From Hyphomicrobium sp. (lineage in GTDB: Bacteria > Pseudomonadota > Alphaproteobacteria > Rhizobiales > Hyphomicrobiaceae): 64,000 nucleotides of DNA. Below, in pieces: positions 94 to 13,490 of the stretch (positions are counted from its first letter, which is position 1; the number at the start of each line of letters is the position of its first letter). Both the position numbers and the translations under genes were made by a program. The stretch lies in the NCBI GenBank assembly GCA_035547255.1, contig DASZVX010000156.1:708-64707 (forward strand), given 5' to 3'. The notes under the pieces are model-generated. The model ran no database searches, was not told the origin of the DNA, and worked only from the letters and a program-made list of their open reading frames with translations.

Positions 94-510
94 TTACGCG
101 TCCTCCACTTCCGTCACAGCGCGGAAGCGGGCGATGCCGTGGAAAGTTTCGCCGTCGCTGTCGCGGCGGACGTCCGAATATTCGTGGCGAAGATTGGCCA
201 ACCGATGCCCCGATAGCGTCATGTCCTGATCGTGCAATGCCTCGCGCGCCGCCGCGATGACGGCTTCCGCTTCTTTCCTTCCGCGCGCTCGCGACCAGAC
301 GTGCAGCGTCACGAGATGCTCGTAACCTTCGTCCGTTCCGGTCGACCAATCGCGCTCCGTCGATTGTCCGAACGTCACGAACGGGAACTCGGCGCGCGCA
401 GGAGCATCGTCGTAGATGCGCGGTCCGCCGAGTGCGGCAAGCGTCGCCGCATCGCTCGTGAGCTTTTCGAAAATCGCCTTCTGAAGCGCAAAACCTGCAC
501 TGGACATCAT
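94..510 (-). CDS. GTA tail terminator/completion protein, DUF3168 family (RcGTA g8-like)
   Basis: ALQKAIFEKL...RIYDDAP...FPFVTFG...DWST...EHLVTLHVWSR...G+KEA motifs; ATG at 510 overlaps the stop of the upstream small ORF; position in cluster. Confidence 0.9.
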   Translation of the reverse strand: MMSSAGFALQKAIFEKLTSDAATLAALGGPRIYDDAPARAEFPFVTFGQSTERDWSTGTDEGYEHLVTLHVWSRARGRKEAEAVIAAAREALHDQDMTLSGHRLANLRHEYSDVRRDSDGETFHGIARFRAVTEVEDA

Positions 511-677
511 TTGCCTCGCGAGTCCTGATTGCGATTGGCGTCTTGAACCGCGCGCATTGGCGGCCGCTCGCCAGCAAGTCCTGCTTCGCGCCTCGCGACG
601 GCTGCTTGAATCAGGGTCAAAGCCCGTGCGCGTGACGCCGATGTCGCGACGCCGCCGATACTCACATCCACTTTCAT
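507..677 (-). CDS. Small 56-aa GTA-cluster protein (not in ORF track)
   Basis: MKVDVSIGGVATSASRARALTLIQAAVARREAGLAGERPPMRAVQDANRNQDSRGK; ATGA overlaps with the neighbours at both ends. Confidence 0.65.
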   Translation of the reverse strand: MKVDVSIGGVATSASRARALTLIQAAVARREAGLAGERPPMRAVQDANRNQDSRGK

Positions 678-1006
678 AGGTCACGCTCCTCAACTGGACA
701 CTTCAACCAGGCTCCACGATCTTCGACGTCGATGGCGCCGAGAATGTCGAAGATGCGGGTTCCGAACCGGATACGCATGTCGGGCTGGACATCGGCGCGG
801 TAGCGTATCCAGACATCGTGCGTCGCCGTTCCTGCCACGCGATCGAGCGTGAAATCTTCGTCAGCGCTTCGCGACCAGATCGCCGCCCAAACCTCGGCGA
901 CGGTCTTCCATTCCGTCGTCGAGCCTCCAGCGCCGTCGCTCGTGCACTCGGCCCGCTCGATGACGATGCGGTGACGCAAATCGCCTGCCTTGACCGGTGC
1001 CTTCAT
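674..1006 (-). CDS. GTA head closure / head-tail adaptor (SPP1 gp16-like, g7)
   Basis: GDLRHRIVIE...DGAGG...W..VAEVWAAI...THDVWIRYR.DV.PDMRI.FG.RIFDI; ATG at 1006 overlaps the upstream stop. Confidence 0.9.
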   Translation of the reverse strand: MKAPVKAGDLRHRIVIERAECTSDGAGGSTTEWKTVAEVWAAIWSRSADEDFTLDRVAGTATHDVWIRYRADVQPDMRIRFGTRIFDILGAIDVEDRGAWLKCPVEERDL

Positions 1007-1872: not shown

Positions 1873-3114
1873 TTACTCCGCGAACTTCAGCAGCTTGATC
1901 GCGTCGAAGTCCTGGACGCCGCCGCCGACGCGCTTCGTCGTGTAGAAGAGCACGTAGGGCTTGGCGCTGTAAGGATCGCGCAGCACACGGATGCCGGCGC
2001 GGTCGACGATCAGATAGCCGCGCGAGAAGTCACCGAAGGCAATCGCCGTCGCATCTGCCGCGACGTCCGGCATGTCCTCGCTCTCGGCAACCGGATAGCC
2101 CATCAGCGACGGCCATTCGCCCGGCGCAGTCGCAGGCTGCCAGAGATAGTTGCCGTCACCGTCCTTCAGCTTACGCACGGCCGCGACCGTCGCGCGGCTC
2201 ATCATGAAGGTGCCGTTGGCGCGGTAGGGCGCCTTTGCGGCGTAGATGAGATCGAGCAGCTTGTCGCCCGGCGCCGTCGACGGGAACGCGCCTGCGGTGC
2301 CGGTCGCGAGGAAGCCGATCTTGCCCCAGGCCCACGACGCGTTGGCGACGGTGTCGTAAGCGAGAAAGCCCTTCGGCTTGTTCGATCCGTCACCGGAAAC
2401 GAACGCGGTACCTTCCTGCTCCGCGAACGCGATGCGGACTTCTTCGGCCAGCCATTCGTCGATGTTGACGATCGCGTCGTCGAGTAGAGACTGCGATGCG
2501 GCGGGCATCGCGTAGAGTTCCATCGTCGGGAACTGCAGGTTGGCGAGCGTCGGCGTCGCCGTTTGTGTGCGCGATGCGGTCTCTGCGACCCATCCGGTGC
2601 CGACGCCTGTCGTCGCGAACGGCCGGTTGTAGACCGAGCCCGAGACCTGGCGGATGCCGGAGATCGCGCGCATCGGCGAGATCGCCTTCAAAGCGCTGTT
2701 GACCGCAGCTTCGGTCTCGGCAGGCACGAGATAGCCGCCATCGGGAGCCGAGCCCGCCGACAGTGCTTTTTCCTCGATGCGTGCGAGGCGCGAAGCATCG
2801 CCGCGACGCACGTAACCGTCGAATGCTGCCTTGTGCGCGAGCTCGGATGCGGGCGATGCGCCGCCGCCTGAAAGGTTCGGGCGCGCGGATTTCAGCGCGA
2901 GATTGTCCGCGACACGTTTCGTCGAGTCGAGCGTCTCTTCGATGCGCGCCAACTTCTCCGCGACGAGCGTGTCGGAGGCCCCGCGCTGCTCGATCTCAGC
3001 CAGGCGCTGATCGTTCGTTTCCTTGAAGGCTTCGAACGCTTCGAGGAATTCTTCGAAGGCGCGCGCGGTTTCCCCGCCCGCCCCCTTCGTCTCGAGGGTG
3101 GTTGTGCCGGTCAT
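1873..3114 (-). CDS. GTA major capsid protein, HK97 fold (g5)
   Basis: DGGYLVP, TMELYAMPAASQ.LLDD, AFAEQEG.AF..GDG.NKPKGFL, LRDPYSAKPYVLFYTTKRVGGGVQDFDAIKLLKF are RcGTA-type capsid signatures; AGGA RBS. Confidence 0.97.
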   Translation of the reverse strand: MTGTTTLETKGAGGETARAFEEFLEAFEAFKETNDQRLAEIEQRGASDTLVAEKLARIEETLDSTKRVADNLALKSARPNLSGGGASPASELAHKAAFDGYVRRGDASRLARIEEKALSAGSAPDGGYLVPAETEAAVNSALKAISPMRAISGIRQVSGSVYNRPFATTGVGTGWVAETASRTQTATPTLANLQFPTMELYAMPAASQSLLDDAIVNIDEWLAEEVRIAFAEQEGTAFVSGDGSNKPKGFLAYDTVANASWAWGKIGFLATGTAGAFPSTAPGDKLLDLIYAAKAPYRANGTFMMSRATVAAVRKLKDGDGNYLWQPATAPGEWPSLMGYPVAESEDMPDVAADATAIAFGDFSRGYLIVDRAGIRVLRDPYSAKPYVLFYTTKRVGGGVQDFDAIKLLKFAE

Positions 3115-3184: not shown

Positions 3185-3883
3185 TCAAGTTGCCTGCATC
3201 ATCTGCGCGGCTTCGCGGAAACGGGAAGCGAGCACAGCATCGCCATCAAACCTCCGGCCCGCGTCCCGCAGAGCCTTCAGTCCATGAAAGCCCGAGCGGA
3301 GAACCGCGCGCGCTTCCATTCGCGTCAGCCCAGCATCCCGCGTGAGCCAGCGCTCGAATTCACGTTCGGTCGGCGAGCTGACCGCGAACGGCCGCGTCTT
3401 CACGCTTTCGACGCGCGCCCCTGGCAGCATCGGAAACGTGACGACCGAAATTTCCCAGAGATCGACTTTATCCAGGCGGCGCACACCGGTTGCCGCGTCG
3501 CGGCGCGCCTTCACCGTCTTGAAGCCGATCGAAAGTCCGTCGAGCGCACCGGCGCGCATCAGCGCCAGGACTTCGCGCGCTTTCGCGACCGCCGTCATCA
3601 GGCGACCGCGCACATAAAGCCCGCGCGTGTCCTCGCGGATCTCGTCCCAGACACCGATCGGCTCGGCCGGATCGTGCTGGAACAGCATCTTGATGCGTTG
3701 CGTGCCGCGGCTCGCTAAGCTCTCACGAAAAGCGCCCGGCGTGATGACGTCGTGACCCAAGTCCTCGCGATTGAAGAGGCTCGCGTAGCCTTCGAACACG
3801 CCGTCGTCGAGCGACTTCGCCTCAAGCGGCAAGGCCCGGCTCCGCTTGACGAGTGAGGCCGGCATCAGAAATTCTTCGATCAT
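3185..3883 (-). CDS. GTA prohead (HK97-family) maturation protease (g4)
   Basis: FEGYASLF..EDLG.D, MLFQHDP.EPIGVW, GLSIGF, LWEISVVTFPM. Confidence 0.95.
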   Translation of the reverse strand: MIEEFLMPASLVKRSRALPLEAKSLDDGVFEGYASLFNREDLGHDVITPGAFRESLASRGTQRIKMLFQHDPAEPIGVWDEIREDTRGLYVRGRLMTAVAKAREVLALMRAGALDGLSIGFKTVKARRDAATGVRRLDKVDLWEISVVTFPMLPGARVESVKTRPFAVSSPTEREFERWLTRDAGLTRMEARAVLRSGFHGLKALRDAGRRFDGDAVLASRFREAAQMMQAT

Positions 3884-5100
3884 ATAATATTTCCTGGCTT
3901 GCGCCCGTCGAGCGCGGATGAACTTCCGTATCCCGCCGCGGCGCGTTTCTCGTCGGTGGAGAGGAAGCTCGCGCCTTCGAGGCGTTTCCAGAGCGCGTCG
4001 CGTTCGGGCGCAAGGGCTTCGATCTGATCGAGGTCGGGTTTTAGCTCTATGTTTGCGCTCGGCGAGTTTTGGTTTGCGCCGGGCGACTCCGCTTCGCGGA
4101 GCCGGCCGCTCGGCGCGCTGGATGTTTCGAATGCCGGTGCTAGCCAGGATGAAAGTGCACGCGCAGTACGGTTCACCAGCGGCAGCACGGTCTGTCGCCA
4201 GAAGGCACGCTGCGCTTCCTGATAATTCGAATACGTGTTGTCGCCCGGAATGCCGAGCAGCATTGGCGGCACGCCGATCGCCAGCGCGATCTCACGCGCG
4301 GCGACGTTCTTCGCCTCGATGAAGTCCATGTCCTTCGGCGTCAGCGACAATGGCTTCCAGTCGAGACCGCCTTCGAGAAGCAGTGGACGTCCGGCCGCAC
4401 GCGCGCCCTGGAAGTTTGTTTCGAGCTCGCTCTTCAGACGCGTGAACTGCTCGTCCGTCATCTGGCCGTTCGCTGCGGCGTAGACGAGCGCGCCCGAGGG
4501 CCGTGCGGAATTGTCGAGCAGCGCCTTGTTCCAGCCCGACGCGGTGTTGTGAATGTCGATCGCGGTGGCAGCCGCCTCGATCGGGCTCATGCCATAGTGG
4601 TCGTTGACGGGATGAAAGAGCTTGAGGTGCAGGATCGGGCGCACGCCTTCGACGACATCGTCGATGAAACGCACGGATCGTCCGCAAACGGTGTACTCGT
4701 AACCCTCCGGCCAGCCATCGACGCCTGGGATCACCTTCATGCGGTCGGGGCGCAGGATGTGCAGCTCGCGCAGTTCGCCGTCGAGCGCGACGGCTTCGAC
4801 ATAAGCGTTGCCCGAGACGAGCAGGAAGCCGTACCAGGCTTCGAGAAAATCGGTGCCGGTGTGATCGAGGCTCGGGCGCCGGATGAGGGTCAGCAGCGGA
4901 TGATCCTCGATCTCGTTCGTGCCCTCGTAGAGAAGCAGCGGGATCGAAGCGGCGGCCTCCGCGATCATGCGCACCGAGCGATAGACGATGGCATTCTGCA
5001 TGAAGCCTTCGCGCGCGAAGGCCGTGTAATCGCGCGGCGCCCACACGGGCTCACCGAGGTTTTGGTAGGCGATCAAAGGGCCAACGACAGAGCCCTTGAA
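3880..5100 (-). CDS. GTA portal protein (HK97 family, g3); apparently 5'-truncated, true start unclear
   Basis: KGSVVGPLIA, REGF.QNAIVYRSVRMIAEAAA, LRPDRMKV, WNKALLDNSARPSGAL, LLEGGLDWK, GIPGDNTYSNYQEA; the TTG at 5175 used by the ORF track coincides with a -35 hexamer. Confidence 0.85.
   Translation of the reverse strand, partial: FKGSVVGPLIAYQNLGEPVWAPRDYTAFAREGFMQNAIVYRSVRMIAEAAASIPLLLYEGTNEIEDHPLLTLIRRPSLDHTGTDFLEAWYGFLLVSGNAYVEAVALDGELRELHILRPDRMKVIPGVDGWPEGYEYTVCGRSVRFIDDVVEGVRPILHLKLFHPVNDHYGMSPIEAAATAIDIHNTASGWNKALLDNSARPSGALVYAAANGQMTDEQFTRLKSELETNFQGARAAGRPLLLEGGLDWKPLSLTPKDMDFIEAKNVAAREIALAIGVPPMLLGIPGDNTYSNYQEAQRAFWRQTVLPLVNRTARALSSWLAPAFETSSAPSGRLREAESPGANQNSPSANIELKPDLDQIEALAPERDALWKRLEGASFLSTDEKRAAAGYGSSSALDGRKPGNII
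4048..4118. repeat. Palindromic repeat family B, copy 4 (half plus full unit), in-frame inside the portal gene
   Basis: tttgcgctcggcgag-ttttggttt-gcgccgggcgactccgcttcgcggagccggccgctcggcgcg encodes SAPSGRLREAESPGANQNSPSANI. Confidence 0.8.
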
Positions 5101-5102
5101 GG

Positions 5103-5140
5103 TGGGTCCCGGCTCTCCGCTATGCGTCGGCCGGGATGAC
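5103..5140. repeat. REP-like palindrome, family A, at the promoter/portal junction
   Basis: Minus strand GTCATCCCGGCCGACGCATAGCGGAGAGCCGGGACCCA. Confidence 0.75.
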
Positions 5141-5146
5141 AAGGAA

Positions 5147-5175
5147 ATGATGCCCGAGAAGCGTCGCGCTGTCAA
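5147..5175 (-). promoter_or_regulatory. Putative sigma70 promoter of the GTA operon
   Basis: TTGACA (5175-5170), 17-nt spacer, CATCAT (5152-5147). Confidence 0.6.
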
Positions 5176-5189
5176 TTGTGAAAGCGATG

Positions 5190-5222
5190 TAACGCGTTGA
5201 AAATTATAGCTATTATTGAATT
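5190..5222 (-). promoter_or_regulatory. Putative IHF site with upstream A/T tract
   Basis: TTTCAACGCGTTA (one mismatch to WATCAANNNNTTR) preceded by aataatagctataat. Confidence 0.5.
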
Positions 5223-5263
5223 TCTTCAGTCAAACCGTCCAAGTATAAATGAGCACGGACGGA

Positions 5264-5276
5264 CGGGGATAAGTTT
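5264..5276 (-). promoter_or_regulatory. DnaA-box-like 13-mer AAACTTATCCCCG (candidate GafY-like activator site)
   Basis: Identical to 13420-13432 and to the inverted copy at 13477-13489. Confidence 0.55.
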
Positions 5277-5277
5277 C

Positions 5278-5793
5278 TCACCGCTTGGCGGACACAGCGC
5301 GCTTCTTAGATTGACGCTGTTCCGGTTGGGCCGGATCCTCACCCTCTCCCAAATCCGGGATGATGTAGCGCCAGTAGTTTTCTTCCTTCACACGCCGTTC
5401 GCTCATAGCGAAGGAACTGACCGAGATGCCGGCCTGATGCACGGTCTCGGGTGAACCCGAAACGAGCGGGTGCCACCAGGGCAGATCGCGCCCCTCGCCG
5501 ACAATGCGATAGCCGCAGGTCGGCGGCAGCCATGTCAGCTCGCGCGCCCGTTTGACGTCGATCTCAAGGCAGTCGGGCATCTTGCTGAAACGATTCGCAT
5601 AATCGCGGCAGCGGCAGGTCCGGACGTTCAGCATGCTGCAGGCGAGCCGCGTCGTATAGACCTCGCTCGTGTCCTCGTCCTCAAGTTTTATCAGGCAGCA
5701 GCGGCCGCAGCCGTCGCAGAGCGATTCCCACTCGTCGGGCGACAACTCCTCAAGCGTTTTGGTCTTCCAGAACGGTTCGCTGTCGCCGCTCAA
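5278..5793 (-). CDS. ycgN: YcgN family cysteine-cluster protein (CxxCxxCC)
   Basis: [11 protein letters not shown]...[35 protein letters not shown]. Confidence 0.9.
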
Positions 5794-5983
5794 CGTCGGT
5801 CTCTCTTTCACTTGCCAGCGCGGCCGAATTGACCACAATTTGGTCGCCTTGAGACGCCTAACGTCCGGCGCCAAGGTTTGCGGTGCATCCAGCAGGGAAG
5901 CGCCGCAATTGGCGCTTGCAATGCGTCACGTGTTTTGGTGCTGAAGGGGCTTAAGCCCACGTGCCCGGCATGGCAAGCCTGAC

Positions 5984-8314
5984 TTGGCAGCCAGACGTGG
6001 TCGGGCGACGCGGCAAAGGGTGACGGTCTTGAACGACTGGTTCTTCAGGCAGGGCGGACGCGACCGTTTCATCAATTGGCTCGCCCTTGATTCGAAACTC
6101 AACTCGACGCTCGGCGAGAGCTGGTCTCGCATCAAGGATTACTGGAATGCGGGATCGAGCTATTTCGCGCGCTTCCAACTTGTCGGCTGGCGGCGGCTCC
6201 TGAATGAGTTCGCGTCCGAAAGCCTCACGATGCTGTTCGGCGGCTTCGTCGTACTCTACGGCCTCGCCCTTCCGGCGTTCCAGGAATTCGATGAGAGCAA
6301 GTTCCAGACGGGCAAGTACGCGGTCACGTTTCTCGACGTCAACGGCAACGAGATCGGCAAGCGTGGTATCCTGCACAACGACGCGGTGCCGCTCGACCAG
6401 ATTCCTGACGTCTTGATCAAGGCGACGCTCGCAACGGAAGACCGCCGCTTCTTCGAGCATTACGGCATCGACGTGTTCGGCACGCTGCGCGCGCTTCTGA
6501 CGAACGTCCAGGCGAACGAGGTCGTGCAGGGCGGCTCGACGCTGACGCAGCAGCTTGCGAAAAACCTGTTCCTCTCCTCCGAGCGCTCGCTGCAGCGAAA
6601 GATCAAGGAGCTGTTCCTCGCCTTCCTGCTCGAGAGCCGTTACTCGAAACGGCAGATCCTGAAGCTCTATTTCGATCGCGCCTACATGGGCGGCGGCACG
6701 TTCGGCGTCGAAGCGGCATCGCAGTATTATTTCGGCAAGTCGGTGCGCGACATCAACATGGCGGAAGCCGCGATGCTCGCCGGGCTCTTCAAGGCACCGA
6801 CGAAGTATTCGCCCCTCGTCGATCTTGCAGCGTCTCGCGCCCGCACGAACCAGGTGCTCGATAACCTCGTCGAAGCCGGATACTACACGGCGGGACAAGT
6901 TCATGCGGCGCGCATGAACCCGGCCAAGATCGCCGAGAACCGCACGTCGACAAGTCCGGATTGGTTCCTCGACTGGGCCTATGAAGAAGTGCAGCGCCTC
7001 GCAGAAGGCAAGGGCCAGTATGTGCTGACGGCGCGCACGACCGTCGATCTGACGCTGCAGCGGCAGGCGGAGGAAGCGCTCAGCGCCACACTGAAGCGCA
7101 ACGGCCGGGCCGACCACTTCAATTCCGGCGCCATCGTCGTGATGGAGCCCGACGGAAAGGTACGCGCCATCGTCGGCGGACCGGATTACGGCGAAAGCCA
7201 GTTCAATCGCGCAACGCACGCCAAACGCCAGCCCGGCTCGTCATTCAAGGTCTACGTCTACGCCACCGCGATGGAGAACGGCTATACGCCCGACACGATC
7301 GTGCGCGACGCCTCGCGCTCGTGCGGAAACTGGTCGCCGTCGAACTATGGCGGCGGCGGCGGTTCGGGAGCGCGAATGCCGTTATGGCAAGCGCTCGCAC
7401 GCTCGCTGAACACCGTTGCGACCGAACTTTCGTTTGCCGTCGGACGCGACAAGGTCATCGAGATGACGAAGCGGCTTGGCATCGAAGGTGTCAAGAAGAC
7501 GTGCTCTATGGCGCTCGGCGACGGCGGCATCACGGTCCTCGAGCATACCGGGGGATTTGCGACATTCGCCAACGGCGGCAAGCGCGCGATCCCCTACGGC
7601 ATTCTCGACATCACGACCTCGAAAGGCGACTTGCTCTATTCACGCGAGCGCGACGAGCCGCCACCGAAGCAGGTCGTCTCGCGGCACGTCGCCGAAGAGA
7701 TGAACCTCATGCTTTATCGCGTCGTCAACGAGGGCACCGGCGGAATGGCCAACCTCGACTTCACCAACGTCGCGGGCAAGACCGGCACATCGACGGGTCC
7801 CAAAGACGCGTGGTTCATGGGCTTCACGGGCAAGTACGTCGCCGGCGTCTGGATCGGCAACGATGACAACCATCCGATGCGCACCGGCGTCACCGGCGGC
7901 CATCAGGCGGCGCCCGTCTGGCACGATCTGATGACCGTCGCGCATACCGATATGAACATTCCAACCATTCCCGGCCTGCCGATGCATCCGCGACAGGTCG
8001 AGGAGCAGCAGCGGCTTGCAGCACTCAAAGCCGCGCAAGTTGCGGAGGGCCTCGAGCCGGCCGCGAAGGCTGCCGACACCGGCAAACCCGAAAGCATCAT
8101 GCCCGACAAGACACGCGCGGTGTTGAAGACGCTGACGGCAGCGTTGCGCAAAGCCGAAGGCGGGCCCGGAGAACCCGCCGCGTCGCCATCCTCGACAGGG
8201 ACCCCGCCGGACCCGGCGAAGGAGAAACCGGCAGCGCGGCCCGACCGGCGCGCGACACTCTTCGATACGTCCCCCGGCGAGCCGACGGCTTCGTCCGCCC
8301 AGAGCGCGCAATAG
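5984..8314 (+). CDS. Class A penicillin-binding protein (transglycosylase/transpeptidase, PBP1A family)
   Basis: EDRRFFEH.G.D, QGGSTLTQQLAKN, RQPGSSFK, S.N, KTGT. Confidence 0.93.
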   Translation: MAARRGRATRQRVTVLNDWFFRQGGRDRFINWLALDSKLNSTLGESWSRIKDYWNAGSSYFARFQLVGWRRLLNEFASESLTMLFGGFVVLYGLALPAFQEFDESKFQTGKYAVTFLDVNGNEIGKRGILHNDAVPLDQIPDVLIKATLATEDRRFFEHYGIDVFGTLRALLTNVQANEVVQGGSTLTQQLAKNLFLSSERSLQRKIKELFLAFLLESRYSKRQILKLYFDRAYMGGGTFGVEAASQYYFGKSVRDINMAEAAMLAGLFKAPTKYSPLVDLAASRARTNQVLDNLVEAGYYTAGQVHAARMNPAKIAENRTSTSPDWFLDWAYEEVQRLAEGKGQYVLTARTTVDLTLQRQAEEALSATLKRNGRADHFNSGAIVVMEPDGKVRAIVGGPDYGESQFNRATHAKRQPGSSFKVYVYATAMENGYTPDTIVRDASRSCGNWSPSNYGGGGGSGARMPLWQALARSLNTVATELSFAVGRDKVIEMTKRLGIEGVKKTCSMALGDGGITVLEHTGGFATFANGGKRAIPYGILDITTSKGDLLYSRERDEPPPKQVVSRHVAEEMNLMLYRVVNEGTGGMANLDFTNVAGKTGTSTGPKDAWFMGFTGKYVAGVWIGNDDNHPMRTGVTGGHQAAPVWHDLMTVAHTDMNIPTIPGLPMHPRQVEEQQRLAALKAAQVAEGLEPAAKAADTGKPESIMPDKTRAVLKTLTAALRKAEGGPGEPAASPSSTGTPPDPAKEKPAARPDRRATLFDTSPGEPTASSAQSAQ

Positions 8315-8327
8315 GAGGATCGCCCGA

Positions 8328-8984
8328 GTGGCGTCGATTGAGCTCAAATCCTACGATCCGCCATCGACCATGGGGCTCGTGCGCAGCATCGTCGCGATCA
8401 TCTTCCGCGCGATCAGCCTGATCCTGACCGTCGCGCTCGCAACGGGCGTCGGCGTCTGGTCCAGCCGCTATATGATATCGCGCGGATCGCCGCTCTCCGT
8501 CGACACGTACGGTCCCTGGCAGCACTGGCGTGACCTCGGTCGCGAAAGCGCCGATCCTTATACGAAAGCCCAACTCGTATCGACCGGCAAGCTCAGGATC
8601 TCGGCCGACAGCGCCGGTATTTTCGAGGCACGCACCGACTCGCAAGGCGCGCGGCTCCACTCATCGTGCAATTATAAAATCGAGGGTGCGAGCCTGCCGG
8701 GACTCTGGTGGAGCCTCGCGGTCTTCGATTCCCGCGGCCGTCTGATCCGCAACGACGCGGACCGTTACGATTTCACCGCCGATACGATCGCGCCCAATCC
8801 GAACGGGTCGTTCGTCGTCACACTCGGCCGCGATGCGCGTCCGGGCAACTGGATTCCGACGGGCGGCGCGGGGCGCCTCGTGCTCGTCTTCACGGTACTC
8901 GATCCGGCGAACGGTCTTTCGGATGAGCAGCGAGCCGAGCGCAACAAGCGTCTCCCCATCATCACGCGGGAGAGCTGCTCATGA
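8328..8984 (+). CDS. DUF1214-like protein
   Basis: ADPY, TDSQG.RL...C.Y.I.G, WWSL, ARPGNW.P; typical position after the PBP. Confidence 0.7.
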   Translation: MASIELKSYDPPSTMGLVRSIVAIIFRAISLILTVALATGVGVWSSRYMISRGSPLSVDTYGPWQHWRDLGRESADPYTKAQLVSTGKLRISADSAGIFEARTDSQGARLHSSCNYKIEGASLPGLWWSLAVFDSRGRLIRNDADRYDFTADTIAPNPNGSFVVTLGRDARPGNWIPTGGAGRLVLVFTVLDPANGLSDEQRAERNKRLPIITRESCS

Positions 8985-12280: not shown

Positions 12281-12853
12281 TCACACCACGTCCGGTTCAA
12301 TTGCCGGACGGTAGTCGCCCGTTCCCCAGTGGCGAACGCGGACAGGCATCGCGCCGAGCGGCCTTTCCTCTCTCAGCAGCCCGTAGTGGCGGGCGAGCTG
12401 GCGCAATGCGATCTGCAGAATGATCTTGCCGGAGCGCTGCGGCCATCCGCTTGCCTTCTCGCTGGCTTCGAGCCCTTTCAGGTGACAGCAGACGTCGATG
12501 AGGACGCCGGCGAGGTCAGGTCCAACGCTCGAAAGTGCGCGGCGGACACGTTCGCGCGCAGCGATGATTGAATCCCGCATATCCGGTCCGATGTCCGGCG
12601 CACGCCTGCCGCCTCCACCGCCCGCGAGAAGCAGCGACCAGTTGGCGGTGACGCGCGGCGTCATCTCAGCGAACCAGAAATCGGCGCGGAGCCGCTCGCC
12701 CGCATCGACTTCTTCATCCGACAACATCGGCCGCCCGTCCTTGTCCTTGCGACGCGCGAGCCACGCCAGCGGGCTTTCCTTTAGGTCGCGTTCCGGAGCG
12801 TGATGTGGCTCGGCTTGCGCTGCCGAAGCCGCGCAGCATCGTCTCGTTCCCAT
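12281..12853 (-). CDS. gafZ: DUF6456 protein, GafZ-like (GafA C-terminal half) GTA activator/antiterminator
   Basis: ESPLAWLARRKD..G, AGERLR.DF, PR.TANW, DVCC.LKGLE..E...GWP.RSGK..L..AL..LARHYG; GAGGT RBS; sufE/mucR context. Confidence 0.75.
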   Translation of the reverse strand: MGTRRCCAASAAQAEPHHAPERDLKESPLAWLARRKDKDGRPMLSDEEVDAGERLRADFWFAEMTPRVTANWSLLLAGGGGGRRAPDIGPDMRDSIIAARERVRRALSSVGPDLAGVLIDVCCHLKGLEASEKASGWPQRSGKIILQIALRQLARHYGLLREERPLGAMPVRVRHWGTGDYRPAIEPDVV

Positions 12854-12892: not shown

Positions 12893-13291
12893 TCAGTTCG
12901 GCCGCTTTTCAGCGCGCATGACGAGTGTCGGCAGCGCCCAGCCGAGAAGATCCAAGGTTCGGTCCAAGACCGGATCGTCGCGCCGATACTCGACCTTCAG
13001 GCATCCATAGGAGACGGTCGTGCGATCGCGTCCGAACATTGCGCCGACGTCCGTCAGGGTCATGCCGCAGGAAACGTGCGCAAGATACATCGCGATCTGG
13101 CGCGCAAATGCGATGTCCTTGGCACCGCGCGTCCCGTGCCACAACGCACCGGTCTCGAGACCGAAAACGCTCGACATCGCAAGATCGAGTGCGAGACGCT
13201 CCTGCCGATAGCGCTGCTGTTCCGCGACACCTGGAAACGCCGGACCACGCGGTCGCGTCTTCAATGCCAAGTTGCGAGAGACTTCAAGCAT
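12893..13291 (-). CDS. gafY: DnaA domain IV-like HTH protein, GafY-like (GafA N-terminal half)
   Basis: AFARQIAMYLAHV...TLTDVG..FGRDRTTV.Y.C..VE..RDD resembles the DnaA C-terminal HTH; directly upstream of the DUF6456 gene. Confidence 0.75.
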   Translation of the reverse strand: MLEVSRNLALKTRPRGPAFPGVAEQQRYRQERLALDLAMSSVFGLETGALWHGTRGAKDIAFARQIAMYLAHVSCGMTLTDVGAMFGRDRTTVSYGCLKVEYRRDDPVLDRTLDLLGWALPTLVMRAEKRPN

Positions 13292-13418: not shown

Positions 13419-13490
13419 GCGGGGATAAGTTTTTTTGCGCACGCCCACGTTCACCTTACCGGCAAAACATCCCTGCAAACTTATCCCCGC
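13419..13490. promoter_or_regulatory. Inverted pair of DnaA-box-like 13-mers
   Basis: gCGGGGATAAGTTT (13419-13432) and AAACTTATCCCCGc (13477-13490). Confidence 0.6.

Follow-up and report, generated by a model that had tools for sequence, protein, structure and literature searches.

A recent, probably inactivating deletion of the terminase genes and portal start in the RcGTA-type cluster of a soil Hyphomicrobium

The GTA cluster of a soil Hyphomicrobium (genome G000; assembly 88% complete, 162 contigs) is devoid of terminase genes and of the beginning of its portal gene, and we consider it likely that this reflects a real and recent deletion of about 2.4 kb that probably inactivated an otherwise RcGTA-type cluster. 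The deletion and its two breakpoints are present in independent assemblies, and a near-identical strain has an undeleted left junction. The deletion begins 3 nt past the -10 element of a conserved, putative GafY/IHF/GafZ-type promoter and ends about 25-45 codons into the portal gene. Lost with it are the conserved 5' leader and both terminase genes (g1, small; g2, TerL), along with the portal's RBS, start codon and N-terminal segment. Transcripts from the retained promoter would then start in or at a REP hairpin and lead into a portal frame without a good start and, because no cognate terminase is left, the cluster should be unable to package DNA and thus be non-functional as a GTA. Presumably too little time has passed for decay of gafYZ and the remaining structural genes, all of which are intact.

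The window, by which we mean the whole stretch of 64,000 nt that was analyzed, holds the 5' part of the cluster, its upstream neighbor and a pair of activator-like genes:

5278 to 5874, minus strand: ycgN-like CxxCxxCC gene (Pfam PF03692), the conserved upstream neighbor of the GTA cluster, also in relatives
3880 to 5098, minus strand: portal gene (Pfam Phage_portal), about 25-45 codons short, with native start, N-terminal helix and linker gone
3185 to 3883, minus strand: prohead protease, intact (Pfam Peptidase_S78; 97% aa identity versus L148)
1873 to 3114, minus strand: major capsid protein, intact (Pfam Phage_capsid; 96.6% aa identity versus L148)
677 to 1006, minus strand: head completion protein (g7), intact (Pfam Phage_HCP; full-length match)
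97 to 507, minus strand: tail completion protein (g8), intact (Pfam PF11367)
12281 to 12853, minus strand: gafZ-like gene (DUF6456), intact (Pfam PF20057, 8e-53)
12893 to 13291, minus strand: gafY-like gene (DnaA C-terminal HTH), intact (Pfam PF08299, 2e-14)

The rest of the cluster lies outside the window, with g9 on C156:104-517 and g10-g15 on C124, as located by tblastn of the cluster of the outgroup G015 against the genome. In these tblastn comparisons portal through g15 each gave a single full-length match, with no stops or frameshifts over about 13 kb of GTA genes, which, together with the Pfam matches of the activators, bears out the view of the initial annotation that protease, capsid, neck genes and gafYZ-like activators had stayed intact. 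As in RcGTA-type clusters, an HK97-type portal, protease and capsid are followed here by g6-g15, the head-tail and tail genes, in the conserved order, and judged from sequence a GafA/GafYZ-type activator and a candidate responsive promoter accompany them; g1 and g2, which mark the 5' end of such clusters, are missing here. Only 180 bp separate the ycgN stop from the start of portal homology, and the protease start lies about 1.4 kb from the ycgN stop in the assembly. Two minus-strand ORFs (5951-7219 and 7640-8347) were set aside as shadows of a plus-strand class A PBP gene (5984-8314).

The gap between ycgN and portal contains the following elements:

5264 to 5276, minus strand: 13-mer box AAACTTATCCCCG, which may bind GafY and is conserved ahead of the GTA promoter genus-wide
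5190 to 5205, minus strand: IHF-like site TTTCAA-N4-TTA in an AT-rich stretch, conserved in all aligned relatives
5147 to 5175, minus strand: core GTA promoter TTGACA-N17-CATCAT (10 of 12 in a consensus scan)
5143/5144, no strand: left deletion breakpoint, 3 nt past the -10 and about at the predicted TSS
5103 to 5143, minus strand: lone REP palindrome marking the deletion scar (hairpin dG -19.8 kcal/mol, z -3.1, without U tract)

The 13-mer occurs exactly three times in the window versus 0.03 copies expected, the remaining two copies being located upstream of gafY at 13420-13432 (minus strand) and 13477-13489 (plus strand). By analogy with Caulobacter, where the GTA promoter has a YBE-IBE-ZBE layout (PMC11150451), the box would be bound by GafY and the TTTCAA-N4-TTA site may serve IHF. 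Alignment revealed that the core promoter (TTGACA at 5170-5175 and CATCAT at 5147-5152, minus strand), including its 17-nt spacer, is nearly identical in 9 relatives; the GTA promoter is conserved genus-wide and is retained here intact up to the -10. The box, the IHF-like site, TTGACA-N17-CATCAT, the palindrome, the startless portal and the lack of a terminase had all been described in the initial annotation, and each was found again in its place.

In the nearest relatives, L148 and L151 (nt identity 95% over the flank and 91-92% over the GTA genes), the gene order is DUF1214, PBP, ycgN, promoter, leader, g1, TerL and portal, and positions 3699-6126 of L148 are missing from G000. This synteny supports the earlier proposal that the terminases and the portal 5' end were deleted. 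TerL precedes portal in every metagenome locus whose upstream flank reaches 2.5 kb or more (47 of 47), and a protein search returned a GTA TerL match at E<=0.001 in 55 of 60 genus genomes (about 50 of them strong). Conversely, the junction was seen in none of 63 other genus genomes. Genome G024 was ruled out as a precedent for a split cluster, its TerL lying about 2 kb upstream of portal. The whole cluster appears to be absent from some members of the genus: the Terminase_6N family had no match in G071, G013 and G039, portal had none in G013, and in G071 and G039 a junction probe found nothing beyond its ycgN end. Other members gave partial matches. Erosion of the GTA cluster is frequent within the genus. 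No same-species contig with the ancestral allele was found in a scan of metagenome contigs (nothing above 90% aa identity), a protein search reached 92% at best, and cluster look-ups placed the exact portal protein on its own contig only; the candidate P0128 proved to be from a different species (85%).

Promoter homology stops at query position 277 (5144) in the matching relatives G057, G034, G068, G038, G003, L148 and L151, where the conserved leader TGTATAACGCGGAAAGTGTGAG comes next that is absent here. A contig from a soil sample (X1) spans 5144-5605, the side of ycgN and the promoter, with 98.9% identity and then continues into the native leader, where it matches L148 from 3699 on with 2 mismatches; it reaches only 36 nt into the leader, and the X1 strain presumably carries TerL as well. 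Portal homology picks up again at about 5098, 25-45 codons inside the gene, and one REP occupies the gap between both breakpoints exactly. Having a stable hairpin, conserved ends and many copies, as expected of REP-type repeats, it matches dozens of sites at 90-95% in other genus genomes, and it is the only copy of its subfamily in the assembly; a sister family numbers about 14 copies there. In 14 aligned relatives, and likewise in L148 and L151, the -10 is not followed by a REP; REPs are present in the TerL-portal spacers of relatives. The initial annotation had tentatively ascribed the loss to recombination between two family-A repeats, and of this idea the single REP filling the gap stands, but the left breakpoint bears a REP in none of the relatives, X1 has the native leader there and the subfamily is a singleton, such that the expected pair of REPs at both breakpoints of an undeleted relative was not encountered. 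The deletion mechanism is probably REP-associated in some manner, and recombination of two REP copies is possible; repeat-rich spacers coincide with the breakpoints of this deletion. A 901-nt contig from run X15 covers 4975-5144 and then runs into 731 unlike bases, and the other loose ends flanking the REP in contigs from X1, X5 and X6 had no match in the genome or the metagenome loci. Palindromic repeats of related families also interrupt portal, neck genes and IleRS without breaking the frame.

Portals of relatives open with MSLISEALTRWLP and a variable linker after an AAGGA-type SD, and their homology to the open frame studied here sets in at its aa 22-27 (about 5098). The native start, RBS and N-terminal segment are thus missing, and neither an ATG nor an SD-preceded start was found between 5278 and 5098 or anywhere before residue 59. 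The portal domain itself is complete (Phage_portal PF04860, 1.7e-86, profile 2-320 of 321, aa 63-414, no stops), and the protein matches the RcGTA portal 6TBA (Rcc01684) from 6TBA residue 11 (1e-127). In-frame start candidates are TTG 5175 (inside the -35), TTG 5142 (at the predicted TSS), TTG 5076, GTG 5046 and ATG 5001, the last with GAAGG 4 nt upstream and the Pfam portal domain wholly downstream. From TTG 5175 or TTG 5142 the REP reads through in frame with portal, non-SD starts are common in alphaproteobacteria, and some portal could still be made by these routes. The NCBI record gives a portal of 431 aa from TTG 5175, and an apparently intact protein starting within the -35 box hides the truncation in the public record. 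Portal dN/dS was 0.135 on both the G000 and the L148 branches, and SNPs in portal among metagenome contigs, whose source strains may be without the deletion, comprised 18 synonymous and 4 other changes and were given no weight.

Logan contigs from two other studies (4993-5451 in X5 and 4977-5620 in X6) bridge the junction with 0 differences and at the depth of the flanking contigs, this sequencing-run evidence being contigs, not raw reads. The fragmented assembly, the REPs at contig ends (e.g. C156:93, 662 and 796) and the breaks of X1 and X15 contigs at 5103 and 5141-5144 might have pointed to an assembly or binning artefact, in which two REP copies were collapsed and the g1-TerL segment went to a lost contig. 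We nevertheless regard such a collapsed-repeat misassembly, a concern already voiced in the initial annotation, as rejected with very little residual probability: unbranched contigs from two independent studies cross the junction, the assembly holds no second copy of the REP subfamily, and a collapse would have to place one REP precisely at +1 and a second within the portal frame. Turning to the terminase itself, no GTA-type TerL was detected in the 88%-complete assembly by tblastn, a genus-wide protein search or Pfam searches; g1 was likewise not found in the assembly, and the ycgN-portal interval has no terminase ORF. A TerL tblastn match at C144:542-655 was spurious, representing an in-frame palindromic repeat inside IleRS on the opposite strand. 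Two unrelated prophage-type TerL genes (phrog_38) reside on C15 (a full 485 aa) and C29. It could be argued that the GTA still functions with a terminase supplied in trans and a non-canonical portal start, either because a GTA-type g1-TerL pair moved to the 12% of the genome that is unassembled or because one of the C15/C29 enzymes steps in, and the intact downstream genes and gafYZ under purifying selection and the promoter kept up to the -10 would fit this scenario. We consider it unlikely, though somewhat less so than an artefact, on the basis that the phrog_38 TerLs have no BLAST similarity to GTA TerL and are not a G000-specific replacement (they are patchy, in 17 of 64 genomes of the genus, and co-occur with GTA TerL in G054 and G033), that no relative examined has a split layout, that the conserved leader is lost and portal is startless, and that a near-identical strain keeps the native left junction. 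A relocated GTA terminase, as floated earlier, is unsupported by the searches of the assembled 88%.

The third explanation concerns selection on what is left. Terminal-branch dN/dS was 0.103 for G000 (bootstrap 0.090-0.120) versus 0.070-0.103 for 11 ingroup branches and 0.19 for the outgroup G015; with L148 as sister the values were 0.098 (G000) and 0.092 (L148), in a test that by our estimate detects neutral drift only above roughly 0.5% synonymous divergence. The G000 lineage thus shows no relaxation of selection. Equal dN/dS would also be expected if selection still acted on the genes that are left and some function were therefore retained, and the remaining cluster might be under selection for a packaging-free role (empty or tail-only particles, gafYZ-driven lysis), with the deletion being stable and adaptive. 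The absence of stops and frameshifts in about 13 kb of GTA genes is compatible with such a role, as is the occurrence of half or more of the sampled words of the stretch in 17 of 24 listed runs, with the junction itself in both runs examined for it. On the other hand, a very recent loss, to which the test is blind below the above divergence, fits the same data, portal, which is required for any head-tail particle, has no start, and a strain whose left junction is intact lives alongside in soils, so that we hold this role to be improbable, a little more so than a terminase in trans. Just as improbable is the broader proposition of a terminase-less GTA, driven by a GafYZ-type promoter, that selection keeps in a widespread soil Hyphomicrobium for empty or tail-like particles or regulated lysis, or that borrows a prophage terminase and uses a REP-encoded portal N-terminus. 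On the basis that dN/dS equals that of relatives and that a near-identical strain keeps the leader, we favor a recent loss, and among the options listed in the initial annotation a recent non-packaging mutant fits best.

The recent deletion looks like ordinary gene loss rather than a new kind of particle, and it leaves knowledge of how GTAs work unchanged. It represents a natural knockout of the terminase and portal start caught before secondary decay, a clean example of how erosion of a GTA cluster begins and a natural control strain for the cost and benefit of GTA production to the cell. Akin to RcGTA (Rhodobacter capsulatus) and CcGTA (Caulobacter), the cluster has the portal-g15 gene order and a split GafA-type activator (DnaA-like HTH plus DUF6456), and, akin to the YBE-IBE-ZBE arrangement of Caulobacter, its promoter combines a far-upstream box with an IHF-like site and a conserved spacer between -35 and -10 (PMC11150451). 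It departs from both systems in lacking g1, TerL, the 5' leader and the start of portal, in the 7 kb that separate its activator genes from the cluster and in the short palindromic repeats that several of its structural genes carry in frame. Partial or eroded GTA clusters have reportedly been encountered in other alphaproteobacteria in surveys by Lang and Beatty and by Zhaxybayeva's group. The present case shares with them the lineage-specific partial loss of a vertically inherited cluster, whereas here the loss is very early, consisting of one clean deletion with all else intact, and both breakpoints are defined, with the undeleted left junction at hand in a near-identical strain. Palindromic repeats of the REP/MITE type are known from bacteria, and Rickettsia palindromic elements insert in frame into genes. 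The element described here resembles these in being a GC-rich hairpin, about 41 nt long, that has conserved ends, many copies in the genus and in-frame relatives; unlike them, it marks a deletion scar and not a simple insertion.

The 180-bp gap between the ycgN-like gene and the portal gene is built as the initial annotation described it: a 13-mer box, TTGACA-N17-CATCAT and a palindrome follow one another, and neither an ATG nor a Shine-Dalgarno-preceded start lies between 5278 and 5098. Pfam assigns the minus-strand genes of the gene transfer agent (GTA) to tail completion, head completion, capsid, prohead protease and portal, with the CxxCxxCC (ycgN-like) gene upstream. The palindrome is ruled out as an intrinsic terminator because it has no U tract. 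The features are:

5984-8314, plus: class A penicillin-binding protein (PBP) gene, upstream of the ycgN-like gene
5278-5874, minus: ycgN-like CxxCxxCC gene (Pfam)
5264-5276, minus: 13-mer AAACTTATCCCCG, three exact copies in the window versus 0.03 expected
5175-5147, minus: core promoter TTGACA-N17-CATCAT
5143-5103, minus: palindrome (short palindromic repeat, REP), folding at -19.8 kcal/mol (z -3.1)
5175-3880, minus: longest portal frame, TTG start
5175, minus: TTG, in-frame portal start candidate within the -35
5142, minus: TTG, in-frame candidate at the predicted transcription start
5076 and 5046, minus: TTG and GTG, in-frame candidates
5001, minus: ATG, in-frame candidate with GAAGG 4 nt upstream
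12281-12853: gafZ-like gene (DUF6456), intact
12893-13291: gafY-like gene (DnaA C-terminal HTH), intact

The remaining two 13-mers (13420-13432, minus; 13477-13489, plus) form a back-to-back pair upstream of the gafY-like gene, an arrangement that would fit autoregulation by a GafY-type activator. After ycgN, relatives carry a strongly conserved promoter. Its 13-mer box is followed by an AT-rich stretch that contains an IHF-like site (TTTCAA-N4-TTA), and its TTGACA and CATCAT are separated by a 17-nt spacer that hardly varies. Downstream come a conserved leader starting TGTATAACGCGGAAAGTGTGAG, the small terminase gene g1 and the large terminase gene (TerL). The promoter in the window is organised like the Caulobacter GTA promoter, in which a GafY element lies far upstream, an IHF element comes next, a GafZ element lies in the -35/-10 spacer and a long untranslated leader follows (PMC11150451); in the window the elements may by analogy serve the same functions.

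In DNA comparisons with 64 genus genomes, promoter homology ended at 5144 and portal homology resumed at 5098 at the earliest. The window follows the relatives' promoter as far as CATCATTTC and is palindrome from there on; since 5143-5103 matches dozens of unrelated sites at 90-95%, it belongs to a mobile REP family. In the nearest relatives, the ENA contigs L148 and L151 (95% nucleotide identity in the PBP-ycgN flank, 91-92% across the GTA genes), the order is DUF1214, PBP, ycgN, small ORF, promoter, leader, g1, TerL, portal, protease, capsid and onward, and in the window 46 nt of REP replace L148 positions 3699-6126 (about 2.43 kb). TerL immediately precedes the portal gene in all 47 metagenome loci (80 in total) that have at least 2.5 kb upstream. 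This synteny bears out the proposed loss of the terminase genes and the portal 5' end, and the idea that relatives might share the layout fails, as the promoter-REP-portal junction occurs in no other genus genome searched. A further indel separates the relatives in the interval from the core of ycgN to the GTA promoter (window 5279-5344 versus L148:3109-3563): L148 and L151 carry an extra 155-aa ORF, in place of which the window ycgN has a 22-codon tail, and two other genus genomes (G002 and G012) have a different small gene.

Same-genus portals start MSLISEALTRWLP and continue with a variable linker and a conserved K-G/A-S/T..G.LIAY segment, at which homology of the window portal begins. By inference, none of the candidate portal starts upstream of residue 59 is credible; initiation at ATG 5001 would keep the Pfam portal domain (aa 63-414) and lose the conserved segment before it. 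The public record gives the truncated portal (3880-5175) as an intact 431-aa protein, whose TTG start coincides with the first three bases of the -35 hexamer. At 570-705 aa, many GTA portals of Hyphomicrobium are longer, and several of these end in a bacterial CdiA-CT RNase A domain (PF18431; in the 652-aa portal P0010 from genome G067, residues 522-644), a toxin-like nuclease fused to a GTA portal, which the window portal lacks.

The initial annotation had raised a collapsed-repeat misassembly, which we rejected on the evidence of independent assemblies. The stretch or part of it is present in 20 of 24 listed sequencing runs from 10 studies (17 contain at least half of its sampled words), and contigs from four studies were aligned to the window. 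A 459-nt contig from run X5 (4993-5451) and a 644-nt contig from run X6 (4977-5620) each span portal, REP, promoter and ycgN with 0 differences and at the depth of their flanking contigs, and neither assembly shows the branch at the REP that is expected of a collapsed repeat. Minor alleles are invisible in such contigs, which are not raw reads; either run could be the source sample, and at least one of the two is independent.

As for how the deletion arose, a lone REP takes up precisely the interval from one breakpoint to the other, the outcome expected from recombination between two REP copies, and REPs of the same superfamily occur in relatives' TerL-portal spacers. This much is consistent with the proposed two-repeat recombination; against it, no relative compared, including L148, L151 and the strain in run X1, has a REP after the -10, and the subfamily of the scar REP is a singleton in the assembly. 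The data agree just as well with a one-sided deletion beside a REP that was already there, or with a REP inserted into a fresh scar. A contig from run X15 covers portal and REP to 5144 and then continues with 731 unlike bases. The portal linker is a hotspot of in-frame palindromic inserts. Such repeats, encoding peptides such as PGGRLAERESPG and ALGDSPSSSRPPSE, also lie in the portal C-terminus, neck genes and isoleucyl-tRNA synthetase (IleRS) and, in many relatives, in the N-terminal linker of the portal; they resemble Rickettsia palindromic elements:

4048-4118 and 1593-1874 of the window: in-frame palindromic inserts
~600-670 of contig C144 of the same genome: in-frame palindromic insert
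portal 5' ends of relatives L040, L045 and L046: in-frame palindromic inserts

No GTA-type terminase was found elsewhere in the assembly (3.47 Mb, 162 contigs, 88% complete), of which the window is C156:708-64707. TerL and g1 from two relatives gave no genuine tblastn match, the only one, on C144, being an in-frame repeat inside IleRS, and the Pfam profiles TerL_nuclease, TerL_ATPase and Terminase_3 detected nothing. The Terminase_6N and 6C profiles recovered two genes, both phrog_38 and both on short contigs with no adjacent portal or capsid gene:

C15:2773-4230: phrog_38 large terminase
C29:519-1730: phrog_38 large terminase, TAG-interrupted

We rejected these as a relocated GTA terminase because they are prophage-type, have a patchy distribution (17 of 64 genus genomes) and co-occur with GTA TerL (in G054 and G033). 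Their orthologues at 86-89% identity are confined to a few genus genomes. It is possible that a GTA terminase is encoded in the unassembled 12%. With the cluster of genome G015 as reference, all remaining genes each have one full-length match, portal to g9 on the window's contig and g10 to g15 and beyond on contig C124, with g10 within 200 bp of its end; REPs are located at the start of the window's contig. Three REP copies and two family-B repeats surround the major tail gene g9 (C156:1-800, just beyond the start of the window, and window 89), where this contig ends; the contig of G002 stops close to the same position, so within the GTA cluster these repeats interrupt assemblies.

To estimate the age of the deletion, we codon-aligned eight GTA genes from 13 taxa (3159 codons) and fitted Nei-Gojobori distances to the tree by non-negative least squares. 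The terminal branch of the window's genome has a dN/dS of 0.103 (bootstrap 0.090-0.120), compared to 0.070-0.103 over the eleven other ingroup terminal branches and 0.19 for the outgroup G015. A closer test over 1410 codons, in which L148 was the sister and G068, the sister genome among species representatives, served as outgroup, gave 0.098 for the window's genome and 0.092 for L148, and 0.135 on both branches for the portal only. Relaxed selection on these GTA genes is thus not detectable by dN/dS, which by our rough estimate would reveal neutral drift over more than ~0.5% synonymous divergence. Moreover, an X1 contig with 5 differences in 462 positions (5144-5605) runs past 5144 into 30 nt of native leader (reverse-complemented; 2 mismatches to L148 from 3699 onward) and ends 36 nt into the leader. 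A strain with about 99% identity across the left flank thus retains the undeleted junction and presumably has TerL. Together, the dN/dS values and this junction speak for a recent deletion for which very closely related strains are polymorphic.

As the -10 ends at 5147, the transcription start is predicted near 5140, where the REP stem region begins, and the transcript would lose the conserved leader. With g1 and TerL missing, the packaging motor would be absent as well, and judging from gene content the GTA of this genome is most likely unable to transfer DNA. In some genus species (G071, G013 and G039) ycgN is kept and no cluster was detected, and other genus genomes have partial matches to the cluster; GTA erosion thus seems common in the genus. 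The deletion is a real and neatly resolved early-stage example of this known process, not a new kind of system.
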